Below are positions 17,974 through 36,523 of a stretch of 44,180 bases of DNA, piece by piece. A program made the position numbers and the translations under genes. Source of the stretch: Candidatus Parcubacteria bacterium (GTDB lineage Bacteria > Patescibacteriota > Minisyncoccia > JAHIHE01 > JAGLIN01); assembly GCA_023140775.1 (NCBI GenBank), contig JAGLLA010000011.1, forward strand, positions 1 to 44,180, written 5' to 3'. The notes beneath the pieces were generated by a model. The model did no database searches, had not been told where the DNA came from, and worked only from the letters and a program-made list of their open reading frames with translations. Position 1 is the first letter of the stretch; every line of letters begins with the position of its first letter.

Positions 17974-18002
17974 AATATATCATTGTTTAATAAATATGTC
18001 AA
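17974..18002 (-). promoter_or_regulatory. sigma70 promoter for 17054..17926
   Basis: Minus strand TTGACA-N17-TATATT, preceded by TGA (extended -10). Confidence 0.75.
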
Positions 18003-25176: not shown

Positions 25177-26148
25177 TTATATACTTTCCCAAGTCGAGGA
25201 TTCGACATTCACATCAATATTGGCGCGATTGTCTTTTATGATTCTTCTCACTTTTCCATTAAAAACAAATCCGTCGGTCATATCTGCGCTTTCAATGAAA
25301 GCTCCATAAAATTTGAAGGGGGCGATCTCTTGACTTCCCAGAATTGCAACTGGGTCAAATTTTTTCTTGAGCTCCATTTTTTCAGAATATATTTCAAATA
25401 ATTCCCAAAGATTTTTTTCTGTCTCTGTCTCTGGTTCAATGACATTTAATCCAAGGTCAGATGCTTCATCTCTGGTGATAGGGTAGCCATGAATACAAAT
25501 GTCACCAGTGATCTCGTTGACAATGTTGGCGATTTTTTCTTTGTCATTGATTGCATCAAAATGCATCAAGAGAAGTTTTTGAGTGATTTGTTTTGCCATC
25601 CTGGTAGCGCGATAAGCATTTCCAAGTGAAAGAGGATGGATCTTTGTGGTTAGATCTTCAAAGACATTAACCATCTGATCATCCTTGACGCCAGCTTTTT
25701 CTTTGGCAAGGAGAAAATAGGAATTCAGATCTTCTACGCTAATTTCCATTTTTTGATTTTTATTCAAAGGGTTTTCAGGATTAAAAGGATGTCCCGTAGA
25801 GGGATCAACTGGACTAAGTTCACCAAGTTTACCCATGACGATCTTGTCTGCTCCAATTGAAATCAAGGTGCCAGCACTATGAGCGCGATAGGGGATAAGC
25901 ATTTCAATTTCATCAGCATAACTTCTGATCAGCTTGATAAGTCTGATTGGAGTAATCATATCTCCACCTCTGGTGTATAGAAATAAACTGATCTTATTTT
26001 GTTTGCCAATCTTTTCTAAATGTTTGGCAAAGATCGGAATAATATCATCTGCCACTTTTGTGACGAATGGTTGTCTGTCGCCAGTGACATAAGTGATAAC
26101 TTTTGAATTCCGCTCTTTTTCAATTTTGCTTATTAAATTTTGAGTCAT
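25177..26148 (-). CDS. SDH-family ClpP-fold serine proteinase (DUF114-like)
   Basis: L.T.GG, AHSAGTLI, LSPVDP, HGYPI.R.EA..LGL. Confidence 0.85.
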   Translation of the reverse strand: MTQNLISKIEKERNSKVITYVTGDRQPFVTKVADDIIPIFAKHLEKIGKQNKISLFLYTRGGDMITPIRLIKLIRSYADEIEMLIPYRAHSAGTLISIGADKIVMGKLGELSPVDPSTGHPFNPENPLNKNQKMEISVEDLNSYFLLAKEKAGVKDDQMVNVFEDLTTKIHPLSLGNAYRATRMAKQITQKLLLMHFDAINDKEKIANIVNEITGDICIHGYPITRDEASDLGLNVIEPETETEKNLWELFEIYSEKMELKKKFDPVAILGSQEIAPFKFYGAFIESADMTDGFVFNGKVRRIIKDNRANIDVNVESSTWESI

Positions 26149-26238: not shown

Positions 26239-26370
26239 TTTATCGATAATAAGTTAGGCTGTTTTATTAATTACATTACTGCAATTAACCTCCTATTCTT
26301 AATAACTTAACATTTTTAGACATAAATTGCAAAGTTTCGATTATATTAAAAAGAGAAATATGAATAATTA

Positions 26371-26410
26371 CTCCCTCCCTGATAAGGGAGGGGAGGGTTG
26401 GGGTGGGTTT
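26371..26410. repeat. GC-rich REP-like palindrome
   Basis: CTCCCT-gata-AGGGAG then GGGAGGGTTGGGGTGGG. Confidence 0.65.
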
Positions 26411-26654: not shown

Positions 26655-26789
26655 TGTCATTTTCGACAGAGCGATAGCGACGATAAATCTATACACTAGC
26701 TAAAACTCTTCACGATTTAAATAGTTTTTCAGCCCAAGATTGATGAGCCTTGGGCTTATAAACCCCTTAATCCCCCTTGTTAGGGGGAA
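26655..26789. repeat. Three further short palindromic elements of different types
   Basis: TGTCATTTTCGACAGAGCGATAGCGACGATAAATCT; AGCCCAAG..CTTGGGCT; TCCCCCT-tgtt-AGGGGGA. Confidence 0.6.
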
Positions 26790-26841
26790 ATAGTGAGACT
26801 TGTCTAGTTTACAGATCGAGATAAAAAAAATTTTAGATTAT

Positions 26842-27208
26842 AAAAAAACAGGCCTTGATGCCTTTTTGGGATAATGAGAAATTGAGATTAAAAGAGGACG
26901 AAGTTGATGTATTATTTAAAGTTTACATCGACATATGCCTTGTTTCGTCCTCATTTGTTATTTTGTCATATGACACTTCCTTCATAGCTCTAGGCTATGA
27001 TTTTTTGCAATTGCGCAATTTGCGCTCTGCGGCCGGTGTACTGGTGATCAGAAATTGGTCTTATAATCTATTTTGCATTTTCTGAAATCTTTTGTATCTA
27101 TTTTCATTGTTACTTATTCCTCTCGAATCTAATACACCTTAGTGCAATTTTGTAGATTCTATATTTTAAAGTCCTGTCTTTCTAGCAAAAACTAGAAATC
27201 GACTTTAC
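26842..27208 (-). ncRNA. Putative structured ncRNA, unit A (about 365 nt)
   Basis: Own promoter 27214-27242; series of hairpins; terminator AGGC-atcaag-GCCTGTTTTTTT; no ORF over about 20 aa noticed on this strand. Confidence 0.55.
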
Positions 27209-27213
27209 TAAAT

Positions 27214-27242
27214 AATCTATCACGATATCGAAATCTTGTCAA
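27214..27242 (-). promoter_or_regulatory. sigma70 promoter of unit A
   Basis: TTGACA-N17-TAGATT with TGA extension; TTATGCACA at 27260-27268. Confidence 0.7.
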
Positions 27243-27367
27243 CCCCTATTCAGAAAAACTTATGCACATCACAAAACTTTACATAATCAATAAAAGTACT
27301 AGAATAAGGAATATGGTTGTGAATAGAAAATTATTTTGAATTTTTATAGGAAATAAAAAAAGTAATT

Positions 27368-28981
27368 ATGATCGAGATTGAGACAATATTTGAAATGTTT
27401 GGAGGATTGGCGATTTTGCTCTACGGAATTCATCTTTCAGGCGTTAGTTTGCAGAAGATCCTAGGATTTAGATTGGAGGAAATTCTCACAAAAACCAACG
27501 ATAATCCGATAAGAGGTCTGACGATCGGTACAGGGATCACGGCTGTGATTCAAAGCAGTGGTACGACCATCACAATGCTAGTTGGATTTATCAGCGCTGG
27601 TCTTTTGACTTTTGGTTCGGCAATACCTGTGATGCTGGGGGCAAACATTGGAAGCACAATTACAACCCAATTAGCATCCTTTCAGATCGGTGTATATGCT
27701 TTGCCAATTTTGACCGTGGGGGTTGTGATTCACATCTTTTCAAGCGGAAAAATAAGAAAGAATATTGGTGAAGCTCTTGTGGGCTTTAGTTTTTTGTTTC
27801 TTGGTATGAATTTTATTTTTTCTAGTGCTCATTCTTTGTCTCATGATACTTTGGCAGTAAATTTGATAAATTCTTTTTCTTCTACGCCATTTGTCTATAT
27901 ATTTGTACTGGCAATTTTAACGTTGATAATTCAAAGTAGTAGTGCTACGTCTGTCGTTGTTGTTGCCTTGGGATTGACGCAAGCCATCGATCTTCAAATT
28001 GCACTTTTTATGATCTTGGGAGTTAATCTCGGTTCTAGTTTGAAAGTTATTTACATAGGAGCAAAAAGAAGAGGTTTTTTAAGTGATCTCGCTATAACTC
28101 ACATATTGCTCAATGCTATAGGGGTGATTATATTTGTGATGTTCTTCAAATATTTTATTTATGTAGCAAGTATTACTTCTTCTGACACAGGAAGACAAAT
28201 TGCAAATGCTCATACAATATACAATCTTGTCACAGCGTTGATCGTCCTCCCCTTTGTTCCTTTTGTTGTGAAATTGATTAATAAATATGCCCCAAAAGGC
28301 GAAATAGGAGAGTTGAAATTTTCTTATCTAAGTCGAAAACTTCTTTATACTCCTTCGGTCGCGCTTAGGCAGGCTAATCGCGCCGTGGTTGAAATGGCAA
28401 ACAAGACTTCAGAAATGCTTGAAATGTCAAGAGTAATATTTTTTGAAAATAAAATAGAGTTGCTGGAAAAAGTTGAAAATTATGAAAATGATGTAGACGA
28501 AATGACCGGAAAAATTTCAGAATATATGTCTCAAATTTCCCAACAAAATTTAAGTAAAAAAGACTTAATGAAACTTTATAGTCTCATGCATTCTGTGACA
28601 GATCTTGAACATTTGTCTGATCATATTTTGGCAGTTTCTGAATTATTTGTGGAATTAAAAGATGAGGATATAGAGTTTTCTGAAAAAGCAGATCGCGAGC
28701 TTACCGCGATATTTGGTAAATTAAGAATTATGCAGAATTTGGTGACAAAAGCCCTGGAAGAAGATAATTTACATCTTGCTCATGAAATTATTAAGCATGA
28801 GAATAAGGTAGACGAAATTGTGAAAAAATCTTATAGTAATCACCTTGAAAGAATGAACAAGGGAGTATGTTCGCTGGAAAAGGGAAAATATTTTGCTGAA
28901 ATTCTGATGAATCTAGAGAGAATTGGAGATCATTCGGATAATATCGCCTATGCAGTAGTTGACAGGTTCCGGTATAAATAA
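27368..28981 (+). CDS. Na/Pi cotransporter family protein with C-terminal PhoU domains
   Basis: QSSG/QSSS repeats, GANIGST, ANAHT.YN, DLEH..DH, NLERIGDH. Confidence 0.92.
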   Translation: MIEIETIFEMFGGLAILLYGIHLSGVSLQKILGFRLEEILTKTNDNPIRGLTIGTGITAVIQSSGTTITMLVGFISAGLLTFGSAIPVMLGANIGSTITTQLASFQIGVYALPILTVGVVIHIFSSGKIRKNIGEALVGFSFLFLGMNFIFSSAHSLSHDTLAVNLINSFSSTPFVYIFVLAILTLIIQSSSATSVVVVALGLTQAIDLQIALFMILGVNLGSSLKVIYIGAKRRGFLSDLAITHILLNAIGVIIFVMFFKYFIYVASITSSDTGRQIANAHTIYNLVTALIVLPFVPFVVKLINKYAPKGEIGELKFSYLSRKLLYTPSVALRQANRAVVEMANKTSEMLEMSRVIFFENKIELLEKVENYENDVDEMTGKISEYMSQISQQNLSKKDLMKLYSLMHSVTDLEHLSDHILAVSELFVELKDEDIEFSEKADRELTAIFGKLRIMQNLVTKALEEDNLHLAHEIIKHENKVDEIVKKSYSNHLERMNKGVCSLEKGKYFAEILMNLERIGDHSDNIAYAVVDRFRYK

Positions 28982-29163
28982 AATCAGTAAAAATCTTGGA
29001 ATAAATAAAAGTGACATAAAGGTAATCAATACAAAAACAGGAGATTGATGTATAATGCTCTAGGAAAAGATATCCTAGGGTAATTTTTTTATGTGAATTA
29101 GGTTATTTTTAGGCTTTTTGTTTTTTTTGTGATAAAATAAAGGTATAATTATTTATTTTATGT

Positions 29164-30135
29164 ATGATCGGAAATTGGATAGATGTGATAATCGTGATAT
29201 ATTTGTTATTTTGTTTTATTAATGGCACAAAACAAAAATTGTTTTTTTTGATTATTAATATAATAAGTTTCATAGTTTCTTTTGGGTTATCCTTTTTCGC
29301 TTATTCGGTTTTAGCGTCTGTATTTTTGATTTATTTTGAATTGAGTGAAGTTTATGCAAATATCATCGGATTTTTTATTAGTATATTGTTTTTCAGGGTG
29401 ATTACTGTTTTTATTTTAAATAGAACAATAGATCGTAAATTATTTACAATACCTAAAATAAAAATAAGAAGATTTATTTATGGATTAATCGCTACCTTAT
29501 ACGGCATGATTGTAATCTTTCTGATGATGTCAATTGTTCATTCATTTTATTTGCCGAGTCTTTTTAGGTCTGAACTTGACTCTTCTGCTTTTGGGAGTTT
29601 TGTAAAAACTGACCCTATAGGTATAAATCAAGATTTTGAGAAAATATTTGGCGATATTATAATAGAGACAACAAACGATATAGAGGCTTTGATGGATGTG
29701 CAAGATGCTGAACCTCCAATCGAGCTGGGTTTTCAAGTCTTTGATTTGCGAATTGAGAATAATTTGGAAAATGAAATGCTTCTATTGGTGAATAAAGAAC
29801 GGGAGTTGAGAGGATTTAAACCTCTAGTTGTGGATGATAAATTACGCGATGTTGCTAGAAATTATGGAAAGGATATGTTTGAGAGAGGGTATTTTGGGCA
29901 TATTGATCTTGAAGGAAGGGGTCCAGCTGACCGTATGAATCTGGGAGGAGTATTATTCACTGCTTCTGGTGAGAATCTTGCCTTGCAACCAAATCTTTCT
30001 ATCGCTCATGATGGGTTGATGAAAAGCGATGATCATAGAAAAAATATTCTCCACTTCTATTTTCACAGAATTGGAATTGGTGTGATCAACGGCGGAGAAA
30101 AAGGGATGATTTTCGTGCAAAATTTCGCTGATTAA
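29164..30135 (+). CDS. CvpA-like membrane domain fused to CAP/SCP domain
   Basis: NWID... 4 TM N-terminus; LVNKER, YFGH, GENLA, S..HR.NIL, RIGIG, Q.F. Confidence 0.85.
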   Translation: MIGNWIDVIIVIYLLFCFINGTKQKLFFLIINIISFIVSFGLSFFAYSVLASVFLIYFELSEVYANIIGFFISILFFRVITVFILNRTIDRKLFTIPKIKIRRFIYGLIATLYGMIVIFLMMSIVHSFYLPSLFRSELDSSAFGSFVKTDPIGINQDFEKIFGDIIIETTNDIEALMDVQDAEPPIELGFQVFDLRIENNLENEMLLLVNKERELRGFKPLVVDDKLRDVARNYGKDMFERGYFGHIDLEGRGPADRMNLGGVLFTASGENLALQPNLSIAHDGLMKSDDHRKNILHFYFHRIGIGVINGGEKGMIFVQNFAD

Positions 30136-30487
30136 GAAGTCTCTGAAAAACGCATTTTTTGTCATTTCTGAGAAGTTGGGAATCCAGGATTTAGTTCAAA
30201 AAATAAATAATCAGAAGAAAAACTTCTTTACTTATCAGGTCTTTTTTAAAAAAATATGAAAAAACATTCATCAAAAAAATGTATAAAAGGAAAAACTGCA
30301 TACAGGGTTTGTAGTACTTTCAGAAATAATTGTAAGAGAAAAACAATTAGAAAAAAAATATAGAAGCACTTTGAATTATGTAATTATAATTTTTCATTTC
30401 ACGGAATTCGATAGCTGGCGAATCATTTTGAGAGACAATTTGATCGTGTTTTGTAATTTAAGGTAGTAATTAAATGTAACAGAGCCT

Positions 30488-31396
30488 ATGACAGACAGAA
30501 GAGATTTAAAATTAAATTTTTTAATTCAAATTATTATTGCTTTTTTGTTAACTGCTTTTTTTACGCTAGTCATCACGAATAGCATGATAACTGGAGATGT
30601 TTTTTATACAACAGAGCCCGTACAGTCTGTTTTCGTTCCTCCTCAAGCAGTCCCAGTGCAAGGAGCAAATTATCAATTTGCGCAAATTGATTTGTTCCAA
30701 TTTCTACTTTCTTTTTTTATTGCTACTTCTTTGATGCTTTTTTTTCTGAAGGCTTTTAGGGGGAAATTTCTTTTTGAATTCTTTTTTTCAGGTGCAATAA
30801 TTTTTGGAGCTCAGGGATTATTTGGAATTTTCTTTACGAAAGGAATTGCATTTTTTGCATCAGTGTTGATCGTTGTGATTCGATTTGTCTATCCAAGGAT
30901 ATGGACGCAAAATTTCATTATTATAATTGGAATGTCCGGAATTGCAGCCAGTCTCGGAACAGGTGTCAGTCCATTATTAGCTATAATAATACTTGTTCTG
31001 CTCTCGATATATGATGTAATCGCGGTATATAAAACTCGTCACATGGTTAAACTTTTTCAAGGTATGGCAAAAAGAGGAGCTGTTTTAGCAATTGTGATCC
31101 CCAAAAAACTTTCTTTGTGGTCTCGTAAATTTGATCTCATTAATTCGGAAAATAAAGATGAATTTATTTTTATTGGGACAGGGGATATTATTCTGCCATT
31201 ATTTTTTGCTGCTTCAACTTTTTTTCTGGGAGTCAAATTTTCAATTGCAATTATATTTGGGGCAATTATCGGATTTGTTGTCGATCATCTGATTTTTATC
31301 GTTCAAAAAGAGAAAAAACCAATACCAGCTCTTCCGGCAATAGCATTGTTCTCTATAGCTAGTTATTTGATTTCCTTATATTTATTCAATTCTTAG
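30488..31396 (+). CDS. Presenilin/SPP-like GxGD intramembrane aspartyl protease
   Basis: YD (SIYDVIAVYKT), GTGD and PALP motifs in a polytopic protein. Confidence 0.88.
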   Translation: MTDRRDLKLNFLIQIIIAFLLTAFFTLVITNSMITGDVFYTTEPVQSVFVPPQAVPVQGANYQFAQIDLFQFLLSFFIATSLMLFFLKAFRGKFLFEFFFSGAIIFGAQGLFGIFFTKGIAFFASVLIVVIRFVYPRIWTQNFIIIIGMSGIAASLGTGVSPLLAIIILVLLSIYDVIAVYKTRHMVKLFQGMAKRGAVLAIVIPKKLSLWSRKFDLINSENKDEFIFIGTGDIILPLFFAASTFFLGVKFSIAIIFGAIIGFVVDHLIFIVQKEKKPIPALPAIALFSIASYLISLYLFNS

Positions 31397-31435
31397 TCAT
31401 AATGTTCTAGTATTAATTTATAACAAAAAATATAA

Positions 31436-31864
31436 ATGTCAGATGAAAAAAGATTAAAGGTGATTATAAGAAGATTTTTTATCTTCCAAAAGTTTTTATT
31501 AAGTGGAATAAAATTATTATTTTCTAGGCCTTATTGGAAGAATAAAATAATAGTGAATTTGACAGTTTCGAGTTTATTTTTAAATTTTTCTTTATTAATT
31601 TATTTATTTTATAACCAGATAAATGGAAATTATCCAATAATTCTTCATTATAATTTCATTTTTGGTGATGATTATCGAGGAGACTATGAGCAGATCTATT
31701 TAATTTTTACAGTCGGATTAATTGTCATTATCATAAATTCAATTTTGGGTTATATTTTATATTTAAGAGAAAAATTAGCTTCTTATTTTCTTATGTTTAG
31801 CGCTTTCGTGGTGCAAGTATTTTTACTTGTTGCTGGATATTTAATCATTTCAATAAATTCATAA
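31436..31864 (+). CDS. Hypothetical 3-TM membrane protein
   Basis: ILHYN..FG.D..G loop between hydrophobic helices. Confidence 0.7.
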   Translation: MSDEKRLKVIIRRFFIFQKFLLSGIKLLFSRPYWKNKIIVNLTVSSLFLNFSLLIYLFYNQINGNYPIILHYNFIFGDDYRGDYEQIYLIFTVGLIVIIINSILGYILYLREKLASYFLMFSAFVVQVFLLVAGYLIISINS

Positions 31865-31880
31865 AATAACTGGATGTAAG

Positions 31881-31912
31881 ATCAATAATCGTCTATTAGG
31901 GCGATTATTGAT
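31881..31912 (+). terminator. Hairpin, probable terminator
   Basis: ATCAATAATCGTC...GGCGATTATTGAT inverted repeat; weak U tract. Confidence 0.55.
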
Positions 31913-31989
31913 TGATAGGGTTTTGTTATTGGCAAAATAATAAAAGTAGATTAAGATTATAAAGCAGTATATGTTAATTATTTTTAAAT

Positions 31990-34803
31990 ATGAATAAAAT
32001 AATCATCAAAGGTGCTCGAGAGCATAATTTGAAAAATATTGATCTTGAACTTCCACGTGATAAATTCATTGTTTTTACAGGTATATCGGGATCTGGAAAA
32101 TCTACGCTGGCTTTTGATACAATTTTTGCTGAAGGTCAGAGGAGATATCTAGAAAGTCTTTCAAGCTATGCTCGTCAGTTTCTGGGACAAATGGAAAAGC
32201 CTGATGTTGATCACATTGAAGGTCTTTCTCCGACGATTTCGATAAGTCAAAAAGCGACCTCCCATAATCCACGTTCCACGGTGGGAACAATCACGGAGAT
32301 CTATGATTATATGCGACTTTTTTTTGCAAAGATTGGAGTTCCACATTGTGTAAACTGTCAAAAACAAATTACTGCGATGACCGTGGAGCAAATGATTGAT
32401 AATATTTTAGATAAATTTGAAGGGAAAAAAATTAAAATTTTTTCTCCTATAGTTCGTGGCAAGAAAGGGGAGTATCTTCAGCTTCTGAATGATATTTACA
32501 AAAAGGGATATCACAAAGCGAGAATTGATGGAAAGCTCGTTGGCTTGGATGAGAAAATTGATTTGGCGCGATATAAGATACATCGGATCGATATTTTCAT
32601 TGATGAAATTGTGATTAACGAAGAAAATTTAAGTCGAATTTTTGAAGATGTTGAGCAGGCTGTGAACTTGTCCGATGGGTTAATGTCAGTTGTTTCTGGC
32701 AGAGATGAATTGATAATGAACAAAAAGCTGTCGTGTTACGATTGTGGAATTGCTTTTGTTGATATTGAACCTCGACTATTTTCTTTTAATAGTCCTTATG
32801 GGGCATGTCCTAATTGCAATGGTCTTGGCAATAAGATGGAAATTGATGCGAAACTTGTCATCCCTGATCACAACAAAACGATCAGTGAAGGAGGTGTTTT
32901 GCCTTGGAGTTATAAGTCGAACAATTATTATGGTTCGCTTTTGGATTCTATTGCGCAACAATTCCAGATTCCTTTGAACGTCAGATTAAAAGACATTCCC
33001 AAAGAAAAATTGGATATAATCTTATATGGCGGAAAGGAGGAGGAGCAGCTTGAAGTTCGATATTATACGAAAAAGGGAAGTAATGTCTTCCACTTGAAAT
33101 TTAACGGGCTTGTTAATGATCTGAAAAGAAGATATTTCAAAACTGATTCCTCGGCTGTCAGAAAAGAAATTGAAAAATATATGAGCATAAGTTCTTGTAA
33201 AACTTGTTTGGGGTCAAGATTAAAAACAGAAGCCCTGTCTGTCAAAGTTCATGGAAAGAATATTGCCGAAATTTCTGCTATGTCCATCAATCATTCTTTT
33301 GAATATTTCCGTAATCTGAAATTGAGCAAAAGAGAGGAGTTAACCGTAGGAAAGGTGGTTGTTGAAATTACAAATCGATTAGGTTTTTTGGTAGATGTTG
33401 GATTGAATTATTTGACGCTTGATCGAACAGGAACCACTTTGGCAGGAGGAGAGGCGCAAAGAATTCGCCTGGCATCGCAAATTGGCAGCGCTCTAGTGGG
33501 AGTTCTTTATGTCCTTGATGAGCCTTCAATTGGACTTCATGCCAGAGACAATAGGAAGCTTTTGGATACTTTGAAGCATTTGAGAGAGATCGGGAATACT
33601 TTGATCGTCATTGAACATGACGAGGAAACAATGAGAGAGGCAGACTATTTAGTTGATATTGGACCAGGAGCTGGAGCTCGCGGTGGAGAAATCGTTTTTG
33701 CTGGAAGTTACAGTGGAATTTTGAAGTGCAAAGATTCAATCACAGGACAATATCTTTCTGGAAAAAAGAAAATTGAAGTACCCAAAGTCAAAAGAAAAAT
33801 GGGCAAGAACTTTTTGACGGTTTACAAGGCGACGGAAAATAATTTGAAAAATATCGATGTGAGTTTTCCTCTGCGGTCTTTTGTTTGCGTGACGGGCGTT
33901 TCCGGAAGTGGAAAATCAAGTTTAGTAAATGAAGTTTTGTATAAATCACTAGCAAGAAAACTTCACCATTCTTTGCAAAAACCAGGAGCGCATCAAAAAA
34001 TTGAAGGAGTCGAAAACATTGACAAGATTATTCAAATTGATCAATCGGCGATTGGCAGAACTCCGCGCAGTAATCCAGCGACATACACGGGTCTTTTCAC
34101 GCCAATTAGAGAAATTTTCACATTAACAAAAGAGGCAAAGGCGCGGGGTTATCAGCCTGGTAGATTTAGCTTTAATGTTGCGGGTGGAAGATGTGAAGTT
34201 TGTAAAGGTGAAGGATTTATCAAAGTTGAAATGCAGTTTCTTCCCGATGTCTATCTGCCATGCGAGATTTGTGAGGGAAAAAGATATAATCAAGAAAGCT
34301 TGAAAATAAAATATAAGGGAAAAAATATTGCTGAGGTCTTGGAAATGACAGTGGAAGAAGCAGTAAATTTTTGGAAAGATGTTCCTCAGGTTTATGATGT
34401 CTTGAAAATATTAAAAGAAGTGGGATTGGGCTATATTCATCTTGGGCAAGCTGCCACAACGCTTTCCGGAGGAGAGGCGCAAAGAATCAAGCTGGCAGCT
34501 GAACTTTCCAGAAAAGCAACTGGTAGAACTTTGTATATTCTTGACGAGCCGACCACGGGTCTTCATTTTGATGATATAAAAAAGTTATTAGATGTTTTGA
34601 ATCGTCTTGTTGATGGCGGGAATACGGTCGTGGTCATTGAGCATAATTTGGATGTCATCAAGTCTGCTGATTATATCATTGATCTTGGTCCCGAAGGAGG
34701 AGAAGATGGTGGCAGAGTTGTTGTCACAGGGACCCCTGAAGAAGTGGTAAGACACAAGGAATCATTCACGGGTATTGCTTTGAAGGAGCTATTTAAAAAA
34801 TAA
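31990..34803 (+). CDS. uvrA: Excinuclease ABC subunit A
   Basis: GAREHNLKN, two Walker A GxSGSGKS, zinc-finger CxxC pairs, L(A/S)GGEAQRI twice. Confidence 0.98.
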
Positions 34804-34923
34804 AAAACAGCATAGATGCTGTAGCTTTAGAAGTGGAGGAAGTGGGAGGTGTTTGTTTGTGTAATTGTTTTGTATTACACCACCTCCCACTTTATTGTTT
34901 TTGTATGTCGAGTGCACTTATTA
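34802..34923 (-). ncRNA. Putative small RNA, unit B (about 120 nt)
   Basis: Promoter 34930-34958; perfect 12-bp stem 34840-34851/34881-34892; terminator ACAGCA-tcta-TGCTGTTTTTT with U tract on minus strand only. Confidence 0.6.
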
Positions 34924-34929
34924 AGAATA

Positions 34930-34958
34930 AGAGTATCATAAATACAATATTTTGTCAA
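34930..34958 (-). promoter_or_regulatory. sigma70 promoter of unit B
   Basis: TTGACA-N17-TACTCT with TGA extension. Confidence 0.7.
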
Positions 34959-35009
34959 GAGCTAAAATTCAAACCATGAAATTTATCTGTTTATCCAGTT
35001 TTTAAAAAT

Positions 35010-35323
35010 AAAAAAACAGGCCTCTGCCTTTTTGTATGATGAAAAGTGGAAGAGTGGGCATTGCTTATTTTGTTAATAAGCTTAAAATTGTATTTTAAAA
35101 TACCCACTTTCCTTTGGTCAAAAGAGATAAATATAATTTGAAGGGAGAATAAGGTGATGTTATTTCAGGCATTAAATTTTCCTGAGTTTTGTAGCGAATC
35201 CGGCTAACTCACACCTCTCCTTTTCTCCTTCGTCTTTCCTCTTTTCTTCTTTACAGGGATCCCTCTGGATCCCTTCTTATTTGGCTAATCTGTGTTACCT
35301 TACAGCTGGCAACTTTGACTAGC
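35010..35323 (-). ncRNA. Putative structured ncRNA, unit C (about 315 nt)
   Basis: Promoter 35330-35358; 5' hairpin at predicted TSS; two multibranch domains; G-U pairs only on minus strand; terminator AGGC-agag-GCCTGTTTTTTT. Confidence 0.65.
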
Positions 35324-35329
35324 ATTAAT

Positions 35330-35376
35330 AACGTATCATACATCAAATAACTTGTCAACCCTTTCGTTGTGGATAA
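35330..35376 (-). promoter_or_regulatory. sigma70 promoter of unit C with a perfect DnaA box
   Basis: TTGACA-N17-TACGTT with TGA extension; TTATCCACA (minus) at 35368-35376. Confidence 0.72.
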
Positions 35377-35407
35377 AAAAACGAAATTTTATAATAATCT
35401 AAATATC

Positions 35408-35444
35408 AAAAAACTAGTCAATTTCTGAATTGACTAGTTTTTTT
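35408..35444 (-). terminator. Intrinsic terminator after prfA (bidirectional form)
   Basis: AAAAAACTAGTCAATT-tctg-AATTGACTAGTTTTTT. Confidence 0.88.
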
Positions 35445-35461
35445 GAATATACGAATCTAAA

Positions 35462-36523
35462 TTATTTTTCTCTCAGCTCTTGTTCAGCTAGCGAAAGAGA
35501 ATCGATGATATTTTCAATATTTCCTTCGAGAACATTTTCAATTTCGTGCCAACTTTTTTTGATGCGGTGATCAGTAATTCGGTCTTGGGGAAAATTATAA
35601 GTCCTGATTTTTTCACTTCGGTCACCAGTTCCGATTTGACTTTTTCGTGCTCCGGATTCGGCTTTTTCTCTTTTTTCTTCTTCAATCGCCACAAGTCTAG
35701 AACGCAGAATTTGCATTGCTTTCGCCTTGTTTTTGAGTTGTGATTTTTCATCTTGACAGGAAACAACTAATCCACTTGGAGCATGAGTAATTCTGATGGC
35801 TGAGTCGGTGGTGTTGACGCTTTGCCCTCCTGGACCAGATGAACGGAAGACGTCAATTTTCAAATCTTCACTCTTGATCACTAAATCAGTTTCTTCAGCT
35901 TGAGGCAGTACGACAACTGTGACAGTTGAGGTGTGAATCCTTCCTTGTTTTTCGGTTTCTGGAGTTCTCTGGACTCGATGTACTCCACTTTCAAATTTCA
36001 TTTTTGAATAGACATCTTGACCGTTGATCTCGAAGATAATTTCCTTGAACCCGCCAACAGTGCTTCGATTTGAATTTAAGATGATTATTTTCCAACCATT
36101 CTGTTTTTCAACGAATTTTGCATACATCCGAAAAAGTTCACTGGCAAATAAACCAGCTTCGTCTCCACCAGCCCCGGCTCTAATTTCAACTATGACATCT
36201 TTTTCATCTTTTGGATCTTTTGGTATTATCAAAGATTTAATTTCTTTTTTAATCTCGGCAAGCTTTTTTTCTAGATATTCGTTTTCTTCACGGGCAAGTT
36301 CGATCAGCTCTTTGTCACTCTCTTCTTTAACAATTTGCTTATTTTCTTCAATTTCTTTTTCTGTCTTGAGATATTGTTCATATTCATCAACGATCTCTTT
36401 TAGCTTGCTCTGTTTTTTGCTAAGATCTTTGAATTTTTTTGCATCAAAAACAGCCTCATTACTACTGAGTTCTTTGGTAATTTGATCGTATTCTTTTTTT
36501 ATTATTTCCAGCTTATTTTTCAT
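35462..36523 (-). CDS. prfA: Peptide chain release factor 1
   Basis: GGQ motif, PxT (PET) motif, [27 protein letters not shown]; downstream of rpmE. Confidence 0.97.

Follow-up and report, generated by a model that had tools for sequence, protein, structure and literature searches.

The 44,180-nucleotide (nt) stretch of DNA analysed here, which we call the window, is contig JAGLLA010000011.1 of assembly GCA_023140775.1 from a Candidatus Parcubacteria bacterium: contig 3 of a 638-kb, 49-contig assembly that is 70% complete and has 33% G+C, with relatives whose genomes are ~1 Mb. Among named genomes, the RF1 genes nearest to that of this assembly are from a "Patescibacteria group bacterium" (81% identity) and from metagenome-assembled genomes of Parcubacteria/Moranbacteria (62-63%). 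On the minus strand of the window lie three units, A, B and C, which an earlier note, made from the sequence alone, had proposed as a family of structured RNAs. Unit A occupies a 1.2-kb gap ahead of the gene for an SDH-type ClpP-like protease and is divergent from a Na/Pi-cotransporter/PhoU gene, whilst C and then B stand in tandem in the spacer between prfA and uvrA, where B ends head-to-head against the 3' end of uvrA (Table 1). As prfA has a terminator of its own, C is not its 3' untranslated region (UTR). Judging from anatomy, conservation, structure and the presence or absence of open reading frames (ORFs), all of which the analysis shows, A, B and C are very probably real, conserved RNA genes. 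In what follows, G000 is the window's own genome, G001 to G023 are relatives of the same family, and C followed by a number is a contig of the G000 assembly; SD stands for Shine-Dalgarno.

Table 1. Units A, B and C, their parts and the genes around them (positions in the window; transcripts are predicted)
Feature	Position	Strand	Description
Na/Pi-cotransporter/PhoU gene	27368-28981	plus	divergent neighbour of unit A
Promoter of A	27214-27242	minus	GGGG, then TTGACA (27237-27242), 17-nt spacer containing TG, -10 TAGATT (27214-27219); TGATAGATT
Unit A, predicted transcript	26842-27208	minus	~367 nt; member of an RNA family of 0.36-1.1 kb
A, 5' hairpin P1	27167-27208	minus	outer stem GUAAAGUC/GACUUUA around inner stem UUUCUAG/CUAGAAA
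A, ORF1	27048-27107	minus	MKIDTKDFRKCKIDYKTNF and stop, after SD-like GAGAGGA; stop overlaps conserved GAUC box
A, G+C-rich hairpin	27007-27030	minus	GCAG-A-GCGCA-AAU-UGCGC-A-AUUGC
A, SD-like sequence	26976-26983	minus	GAAGGAAG, precedes the mini-ORF
A, mini-ORF	26958-26969	minus	AUG ACA AAA UAA; ends 5 nt ahead of the last hairpin
A, last hairpin	26894-26952	minus	purine 5' arm GAGGACGAA, pyrimidine 3' arm UUCGUCCUC
A, tail and terminator	26842-26893	minus	pyrimidine-rich tail (UUUUAAUCUCAAUUUCUCAUUAUCCC), then AGGCAUCAAGGCCUG and U7, as read from the sequence
Terminator of A	ends 26842	minus	CAAAAAGGC-atcaag-GCCTGTTTTTTT; RNA AGGC-AUCAAG-GCCU, G, U7
SDH-type ClpP-like protease gene	25177-26148	minus	next minus-strand gene beyond unit A
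prfA	35462-36523	minus	upstream of unit C
prfA terminator	35404-35448	minus	AAAAACTAGTCAATT-cagaa-AATTGACTAGTTTTTT; between prfA and unit C
Promoter of C	35330-35358	minus	GGG, then TTGACA, 17-nt spacer, TGATACGTT
Unit C, predicted transcript	35010-35323	minus	~314 nt; 3' end is the best match in the assembly to the profile of prfA-uvrA-spacer units
C, 5' hairpin	35284-35323	minus	part of unit C
C, GGGAUCC hairpin	35255-35274	minus	followed by a long purine/pyrimidine domain
C, hairpin AAAGUGGG...CCCACU	35053-35110	minus	followed by a CU-rich tail and the terminator
Terminator of C	35010-35033	minus	ends 35010; CAAAAAGGC-agag-GCCTGTTTTTTT; RNA GGC-AGAG-GCC, UG, U7
Promoter of B	34930-34958	minus	AGCTC, then TTGACA, 17-nt spacer, TGATACTCT
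Unit B, predicted transcript	34802-34923	minus	~122 nt; first 30 nt unpaired
B, purine/pyrimidine hairpin	34839-34893	minus	inner hairpin GUGUAAU...AUUACAC; tail CCUCCACUUCUAAAGCU follows
Terminator of B	34802-34822	minus	ends 34802; ACAGCA-tcta-TGCTGTTTTTT; RNA ACAGCA-UCUA-UGCUGU (ACAGCAUCUAUGCUG), U5-U6
uvrA	31990-34803	plus	3' end meets the end of unit B head-to-head

The perfect TTGACA, 17-nt spacer and TGA-TAnnnT that the earlier note had seen before each unit are indeed there, and are far from what chance would supply: the pattern TTGACA-N14-TGnTAnnnT matches four times in the window against 0.08 expected, a number that none of 100 dinucleotide shuffles reaches. Three of these matches head A, B and C, and the fourth (17974-18002) stands before a protein gene; across the assembly there are 27 such sites, or 38 with a gap of 13-15 bases. 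The AGCT(A/C) context upstream of the B promoter recurs in units of G001, G002, G003 and G014. At the other end, the terminators read directly as the note had described them, and so do the strings said to be shared, GGGTTGACAAG by A and C and AAAGTGGG...CCCACT by B and C. A terminator consensus scan lists B only, because the stems of A and C hold just three G-C pairs.

Between these ends, the predicted RNAs fold far better than the dinucleotide shuffles against which the note had wanted them measured (z is -6.66 for C and -4.37 for A, neither equalled by any of 100 shuffles, and -5.75 for B, equalled by none of 200), and 13 of the 15 orthologous units tested have z-scores of -2.0 to -7.5, in a set restricted to units of up to 500 nt and hence without the four longest A-type ones (G011, G006, G022, G009). 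No long conserved ORF was found on either strand of the units or their orthologues; the 76-codon antisense ORF in A (26855-27085, plus strand) has no conserved counterpart even in G003 or G001, and is discarded as a protein gene. With a promoter and an intrinsic terminator each, and no gene to lead into, A, B and C have the appearance of separate transcription units.

Conservation has to be sought by position: BLAST of the units against their own genome and 40 relatives gave DNA similarity limited to terminator-sized matches, and orthologues were therefore sought by synteny. The cotransporter gene, found in 23 of the 24 family genomes, served as anchor for A. Among the 23 upstream regions, 11 contain a complete A-type unit in the same place and orientation, with lengths of 372 nt in G000, 360 in G002, 415 in G017, 428 in G003, 433 in G001, 442 in G010, 495 in G015, 629 in G022, 658 in G009, 934 in G011 and 1106 in G006; two more hold a partial unit (the 3' part in G008, the terminator alone in G014), and in the remaining ten none was recognised. 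The A-type promoter, often with GGG ahead, precedes the orthologous units of the ten other genomes. Profiles built from other genomes' A-type units place unit A first in the G000 assembly with each part (3' end, E 5e-5; middle, E 0.03; 5' part, E 0.052). A degenerate promoter and 5'-stem pattern run on metagenomes was too loose to extend the family: 0 of 80 kept stretches (of at least 119) had the cotransporter gene or an A-type terminator. In G015 (L150, 3944-4438 and ~480 nt upstream), the A-type promoter and 5' part are present in tandem duplicate, a 28-nt promoter string occurring twice, 476 nt apart, which may be genuine or may have arisen in assembly.

What recurs in the A-type units is an order of parts: promoter, a 5' hairpin starting GUGAAGUUGA, an SD-led ORF whose stop lies at a GAUC box, a G+C-rich hairpin, an SD-led mini-ORF, a last hairpin, the tail motif YUUAAUCUUC and the terminator GGCA-UCAA-GGCCUG-U7, the last two recurring across genera. 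The core GCGCA...UGCGC with its (C)UGCA stem and ACAAAA bulge is found also in G003, G001, G002 and G017; set in a CUGCA stem, it marks the short A-type forms, and larger domains take its place in the long ones. Conserved ends and variable middles, as the earlier note had it, thus describe the units well, and relatives have orthologues whose stems are altered and still pair. The arms of the last hairpin differ in sequence and keep their pairing in G003, G001, G002, G017, G010 and G009. For the P1 outer stem, in a trimmed alignment of 11 orthologues, 93.4% of cells are paired, against 34-63% in slid controls, and both sides have changed (A-U vs G-C) in two of the six pairs, a score that 9 of 500 shuffles reach. 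Of the eight A-type units whose folds were tested (G000, G003, G001, G002, G017, G010, G015 and the partial G008), six have z at or below -2.7, the weakest being G010 (-2.05) and G008 (-1.8).

The short ORFs are where the earlier note needs correcting. It had found no shared ORF, which stands for long ones; A-type units nonetheless keep two short, SD-led frames in position, and conserved small ORFs were among the things that the note itself had named as speaking against its view of A as simply non-coding, a view we abandon. In 9 of the 11 complete units an SD-led ORF, 16-33 codons long, lies at the position of ORF1. All 11 have the mini-ORF, which counts 2-8 codons behind a strong SD (mostly AAGGAGG), with the peptides MTK, MKM, MRI, MTM, MTQ, MKKI, MRRF, MF, MI, MYYKHF and MIFKKIKF; in the short forms its stop lies within UAA(C)AAA (mostly UAACAAA), a few bases before the last hairpin. 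A positionally conserved short ORF with an SD, by which a dual-function (coding) small RNA (sRNA) would be recognised, is thus found in A alone, and we think that ribosomes probably engage the short ORFs of A. The neighbouring cotransporter genes, in the window (leader at 27243-27367) and in orthologues, have an A/U-rich leader without a GGAGG-type SD; the SDs of the adjacent RNA's short ORFs are very strong.

Could unit A then be mainly the mRNA of a small protein, ORF1 encoding 16-33 residues and the hairpins serving as UTR stability elements with no regulatory role? The SD-led ORF1 of nine orthologues, the recurrence in frame (judged partly by eye) of a Phe codon (xUU-UUY) followed by basic residues, and the unit's own strong promoter and terminator would all suit such a gene. 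However, the peptide is barely conserved, whereas P1, the G+C-rich hairpin, the UAACAAA box and the tail are; ORF1 takes up ~60 of 367 nt, shrinks to 2 codons in G015 and 4 in G022 (where an overlapping AUGA, read by eye, opens a 28-codon frame), and the G006 unit reaches 1.1 kb with no longer conserved ORF to account for it. We therefore consider a plain small-protein mRNA unlikely. A small SD-led ORF in a highly structured RNA with its own promoter and terminator also recalls type I toxin-antitoxin loci, with ORF1 as the small toxic peptide; yet the peptides of ORF1, basic and hydrophilic, lack any stretch that could span a membrane, antisense ORFs are not conserved and we saw no promoter-terminator unit in antisense, so that we give this idea next to no credence.

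Units B and C belong to a different home. prfA was found in all 24 family genomes and the region downstream of it was read in 16, six of which have complete units in the prfA-uvrA spacer: C and B in G000, and single units of 214 nt in G001, 215 in G003, 173 in G014, 254 in G010 and 309 in G006. Incomplete forms are a unit cut by a contig end in G002, a reduced one in G008 and 3' remnants only in G011 and G015. The relatives' units begin with a stem, GUUGGCUUGAG...CUCAAGUCAA, in which a compensatory change can be read directly (GGCUUGAG/CUCAAGUC in G003 vs GGCCUGAG/CUCAGGUC in G001); there follows a purine/pyrimidine hairpin whose arms vary from genome to genome and still pair (GAGAGAAGGG/CCCUUCUCUC, AGAGAUAGAGAGAGAG/CUCUCUCUAUCUC, GUGGGAGGUG/CACCUCCCAC), with an inner hairpin GUGNNAU...AUNNCAC, a CU-rich tail and a terminator. 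Their folds have z-scores of -3.9 to -6.9, G006 excepted (-0.8). B has the inner hairpin in the form found in G003 and G001 and a terminator almost identical to that of G003; the terminator of C and the bases after it are like those of the G001 unit; and B and C have the stem AAAGUGGG/CCCACU in common. A profile of the relatives' 5' domain found no match in the assembly, in B, in C or elsewhere. When 401 genomes of the class were sampled, the 5' promoter and stem pattern turned up in 4, and three of these belong to the family. Coding capacity is minimal, with an SD-led ORF of at most 2 codons in C, no ORF in B, and in six of the seven B-type units no SD-led ORF of more than 2 codons, the exception being one TTG frame of 21 codons in G010. 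Our best reading is that the sRNA which related genomes seem to carry in the same spacer is present here in two tandem copies, B and C, both free of ORFs. In that spacer G001 also has an SD-led ORF of ~135 codons, between prfA and the B-type unit, which is absent from G000, G003 and G014; the homologous stretch of G002 contains an in-frame TGA (read by eye), making this a spacer indel.

The same loci raise the possibility that nothing here is functional, and that the units are remnants of rearrangement, mobile repeats, or promoter- and terminator-like sequences paired by chance in an A+T-rich genome. C has no full-length orthologue, B lacks the relatives' 5' domain, BLAST similarity in relatives is confined to terminators, and the loci are in flux: G011, G014 and G015 have remnants, and G015 has a tandem duplication. 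On the other hand, the promoter pattern is 50 times more frequent in the window than expected; position, architecture and pairing are kept across genera despite sequence change; and there are one or two copies per genome, not dispersed repeats. We regard non-function as extremely improbable.

Are these one family or two? The last 43 nt of A and C are related, with an alignment score of 41 against 20.9 +- 2.5 in shuffles (0 of 500 reach it), whereas B is significantly similar as plain sequence to neither C (71 of 500 shuffles reach the score) nor A (93 of 500). When the last 70 nt of five B-type units from other genomes are made into a profile, its top three matches in the assembly are, in this order, C (E 0.03), B (E 0.4) and A (E 2.6), the next having E 6.8; to us the ranking is telling, though each E-value is weak alone. 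In all 19 units, moreover, the 3' end runs from a pyrimidine-rich stretch through an A-rich spacer into a short G+C hairpin, and in 15 of them this hairpin ends in CUG right before the U run; the mean pyrimidine fraction ahead of the terminator is 0.72 in the B type and 0.65 in the A type, with recurring motifs in the CU tail (YUUAAUCUUC in the A type, CACUUCU/UUCUUCU in the B type). The best reading would be a 3' module common to both families: an unpaired CU stretch, then a short G+C hairpin with CUG at its end, then a U run. A-type units and B/C are, as far as sequence and synteny tell, separate orthologous groups with different 5' domains and different fixed genomic homes. The earlier note's single paralogous family is thus right only in part: the 3' ends are related, and the units as wholes form two families, B and C lacking even the 5' domain of their relatives. 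The purine/pyrimidine hairpin is a trait of some of these RNAs and not of the genome.

None of the known RNA families that we tried accommodates the units, in keeping with the earlier note, whose author had recognised no class and suggested a search of Rfam. At gathering scores, the 4227 covariance models of Rfam 15 have no match in the window, nor in 11 A-type and 6 B-type orthologous loci, and a permissive search of both regions gave chance-level matches only (snoRNA and miRNA models, STnc370 with E 1.7, and csRNA with E 6.9 on the other strand). Nor does ARAGORN detect a tRNA or tmRNA in the window; tmRNA and RNase P RNA are discarded as identities, each sitting elsewhere in the assembly (C6:38702-39098, 122.6 bits, and C2:1945-2451, 154.3 bits). 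The RNase P RNA match spans 507 nt for 367 model positions, which suggests one or more large insertions. The partners of two familiar kinds of sRNA are also missing: CsrA (PF02599), without which a CsrB/RsmZ-type sponge is discarded, was found in none of five genomes, four of them at least 94% complete, and Hfq (PF17209) likewise in none of five, so that Hfq-dependent sRNAs are set aside.

A 6S RNA is ~180-200 nt long, its 5' and 3' ends paired into a stem that closes off a large central bubble. The model RF00013 found none in the assembly at E <= 10 and none in five relatives at E <= 0.1. The units share with 6S RNA a strong promoter, a structured body and the look of an abundant RNA, and no other 6S RNA is detectable in these genomes; unlike 6S RNA, they have no match to the covariance model and very variable lengths (122-1106 nt), and at minimum free energy A, B, C and the unit of G014 fold into strings of separate hairpins that lack both an end-to-end stem and a central bubble. 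Elsewhere in G000, C34:16700-16981 (minus strand) is a promoter-to-terminator unit of ~190 nt, beginning AGCTC-TTGACAAGATTTG..., whose ends pair into a long interrupted hairpin of 6S-like shape; it has no Rfam match at permissive thresholds.

An identity as SRP RNA, the RNA of the signal recognition particle (SRP), is equally discarded. RF00169 was detected neither in G000 nor in a set of five genomes and RF01854 in none of five genomes, and the protein partner is undetected too: the SRP54 M domain (PF02978) in 0 of 24 family genomes, the SRP54 GTPase domain (PF00448) in 0 of 4 genus genomes, one of them 98% complete, and FtsY (TIGR00064) above its cut-off in 0 of the same 4, which gave one 18-bit fragment, with the DTAGR motif absent from a six-frame translation of G000. 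The same searches were positive in all 14 control genomes. The SRP pathway thus seems to be missing in this lineage, a notable loss if real.

These results bear on a further alternative, namely that the units are protein-binding or housekeeping RNAs: perhaps an RNA polymerase-binding RNA that is a divergent relative of 6S, or a sponge for some protein or ribosomal component with affinity for CU-rich or GA-rich RNA. The vacant 6S role and the top-class promoters speak in its favour, and GGA/GGAGG-rich purine arms, together with pyrimidine arms like the anti-SD of 16S rRNA, could bind ribosomal components. Yet the folds lack the end-joining stem and the 6S bubble, lengths range from 122 to 1106 nt, CsrA was found in none of five genomes, an SRP RNA is excluded, Ffh and FtsY domains being undetected in the genus and the RNA-binding M domain of SRP54 in the family, and the C34 unit is the more 6S-like in shape. 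We judge this alternative very unlikely.

Amongst known regulators (whose features, for RNAIII, SgrS/SgrT, SR1/SR1P, csRNAs, RsaE/RoxS, attenuators and bar minigenes, we give from general knowledge), the closest parallels to the A type are the dual-function sRNAs of Firmicutes and enterobacteria: Staphylococcus aureus RNAIII, SgrS/SgrT and SR1/SR1P. Like RNAIII, A-type units have their own strong promoter and intrinsic terminator, several hundred nt with many hairpins, an internal SD-led short ORF, conserved ends around a variable middle, and unpaired C/U near the 3' hairpins that could pair with an SD, in a genome where no Hfq was detected. They differ in that there is no sequence or Rfam relationship, no target or quorum-sensing context seen for A, and a host from another phylum. 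They also have something extra, the second SD-led mini-ORF by the last hairpin, and we know of nothing of this kind in RNAIII, SgrS/SgrT or SR1/SR1P.

For B and C the nearest likeness is to the streptococcal csRNAs (RF02379) and RsaE/RoxS, which are likewise ORF-free, Hfq-independent and driven by their own promoter, in the size range of 120-320 nt seen here, with an unpaired C/U stretch complementary to GGAGG-type sites just before an intrinsic terminator. In contrast to these, much of the CU-rich sequence of B and C is locked in the purine/pyrimidine hairpin; and unlike csRNAs, B and C have a plain TTGACA promoter with no CiaR-type direct repeat seen to replace the -35, the sole csRNA match in the region being of 19.6 bits against a gathering score of 57 (E 6.9) and on the other strand (35353-35440).

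A very short SD-led ORF directly upstream of a hairpin and a U-run terminator is also what trp/his and erm leader attenuators and lambda bar minigenes have, and a ribosome on such an ORF would be expected to remodel the hairpin. Are the units, then, cis-acting leaders, the short ORFs and terminator of A controlling read-through into the protease gene? The succession of leader ORF or mini-ORF, hairpin and terminator is the layout of ribosome-mediated attenuation; the pyrimidine arm CCUCUUUU could pair with the terminator CAAAAAGG, as read directly; and the protease gene does lie downstream in G000, G003 and G001. However, the downstream gene varies, being on the opposite strand in G017, G011, G014, G008 and G022, so that no conserved same-strand gene follows and the unit ends at its terminator with nothing to regulate in cis; in the window, ~700 nt and the protease gene's own conserved promoter (TTGCAA-N17-TGTTAAGTT) intervene. 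B, ending against the 3' end of uvrA, and C, preceding B, have no gene to control either. An attenuator is, in our opinion, highly improbable.

On balance we lean towards reading A, B and C as genuine RNA genes, separately transcribed, which would form two lineage-restricted families outside Rfam with regulatory roles, A being dual-function or translated. We infer transcription, translation, targets and effect from the features described above. The RNAs would act in trans, without Hfq, as base-pairing regulators, and we favour this because an unpaired CU-rich stretch beside the terminator is the classic layout of Hfq-independent sRNAs in Gram-positive bacteria. The CU-rich tail and the 3' hairpin arm resemble an anti-SD sequence (for example CUUCCUCCACUUCU in B) and might pair with purine-rich ribosome-binding sites of mRNAs; such anti-SD pairing as the mode of action is possible rather than probable. 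As a dual-function or translated RNA, A itself would be a regulator comparable to RNAIII or SgrS, and ribosomes on its short ORFs would influence its structure or stability.

Several observations weigh against this interpretation. With 11-12 units of the A type and 7 of the B type, all from close relatives, the samples are small, which keeps covariation statistics modest: for the P1 stem, double changes occur at just two pairs and nine shuffles equal the score. MAFFT and RNAalifold recover no consensus structure from raw A-type alignments (0 pairs in the 5' 80 nt, 3 in the 3' 110 nt), because variable loops defeat the alignment. Two orthologues, the B-type unit of G006 and the partial unit of G008, fold no better than shuffles. 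Apart from the Phe codon and the basic residues after it, the ORF1 peptide is poorly conserved, its frame is ambiguous in G003 and G001, and the near loss of ORF1 in G015 and G022 counts here as well as against a small-protein gene. As for the parts that are supposed to pair, the last hairpin has mixed arms in G006, G008, G011 and G015, so that the purine-then-pyrimidine order is not universal in the A type; genome-wide, hairpins of that order are not enriched over the opposite one (671 vs 642 by a loose definition, 15 vs 15 by a strict one); and in 12 genomes the A-type tail has no special complementarity to the start region of the cotransporter gene, the only target tested (z -1.3 to +1.2). 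Among the profile results, the 3'-profile E-values of B and A are not significant singly, and an A-type identity for the terminator of C is rejected, as profiles of A orthologues give it only a non-significant E of 0.12-0.16.

What might the mini-ORF be for? Its invariant place beside the last hairpin suggests that a ribosome bound there would reshape the hairpin, and one may speculate that the A type is a translation-gated riboregulator: a ribosome initiating or terminating at the mini-ORF, its landing pad, would open the purine/pyrimidine hairpin, freeing the CU tail or altering termination or decay, and the RNA would thereby report translational capacity to its targets. We consider this unlikely as it stands. 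If true, a translation-gated A together with ORF-free B and C would be the first RNA-regulation layer described in Patescibacteria.

Much of the diversity of bacteria belongs to the Patescibacteria (the candidate phyla radiation) and, to our knowledge, almost nothing is known of their gene regulation; the portion of the literature that we covered yielded no paper dealing with sRNAs or 6S RNA in these bacteria. Promoter-to-terminator regulatory RNAs as a kind are well known; the present families, and the A-type layout with two SD-led short ORFs, are absent from Rfam and correspond to nothing that we can name. They offer two conserved families of RNA genes whose promoters, ends and structural modules are defined, from ~1-Mb genomes in which neither Hfq nor CsrA was detected (five searched), and would be useful in RNA libraries for annotating such genomes. 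The A-type layout, an elaborate and expandable fold of 0.36-1.1 kb with two SD-led short ORFs, could link translation status to riboregulation.

Around the units, some smaller features were also seen. Upstream of the protease gene (26270-26345, minus strand), the promoter-like sequence already mentioned precedes AGGAGGT and a start codon that runs straight into a stop (AUG UAA); promoter and SD are kept in G001, G002 and G003, the AUG-UAA in G000 and G001 only. A short intergenic hairpin, CCCCUCCUU-loop-AAGGAGGGG, is repeated at 26372-26393 of the window and, in G000, at C6:31839, C20:16465, 16928 and 17023, C28:10829, C30:3809 and C19:1163, with similar C-rich hairpins flanking the G001 units and at 26770-26800 of the window; it may be a small repeat element or a type of terminator. 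Finally, further ORF-poor candidate units with perfect extended promoters and terminators are found in G000 at C6:21970-22110 (plus), C6:31210-31340 (plus), C45:18065-18329 (minus), C14:30171-30354 (plus) and C49:39187-39398 (minus), the first of which starts AAAGUCA and has a purine/pyrimidine stem, AAGAAGAG/CUCUUCU; G000 may encode about a dozen such RNAs.

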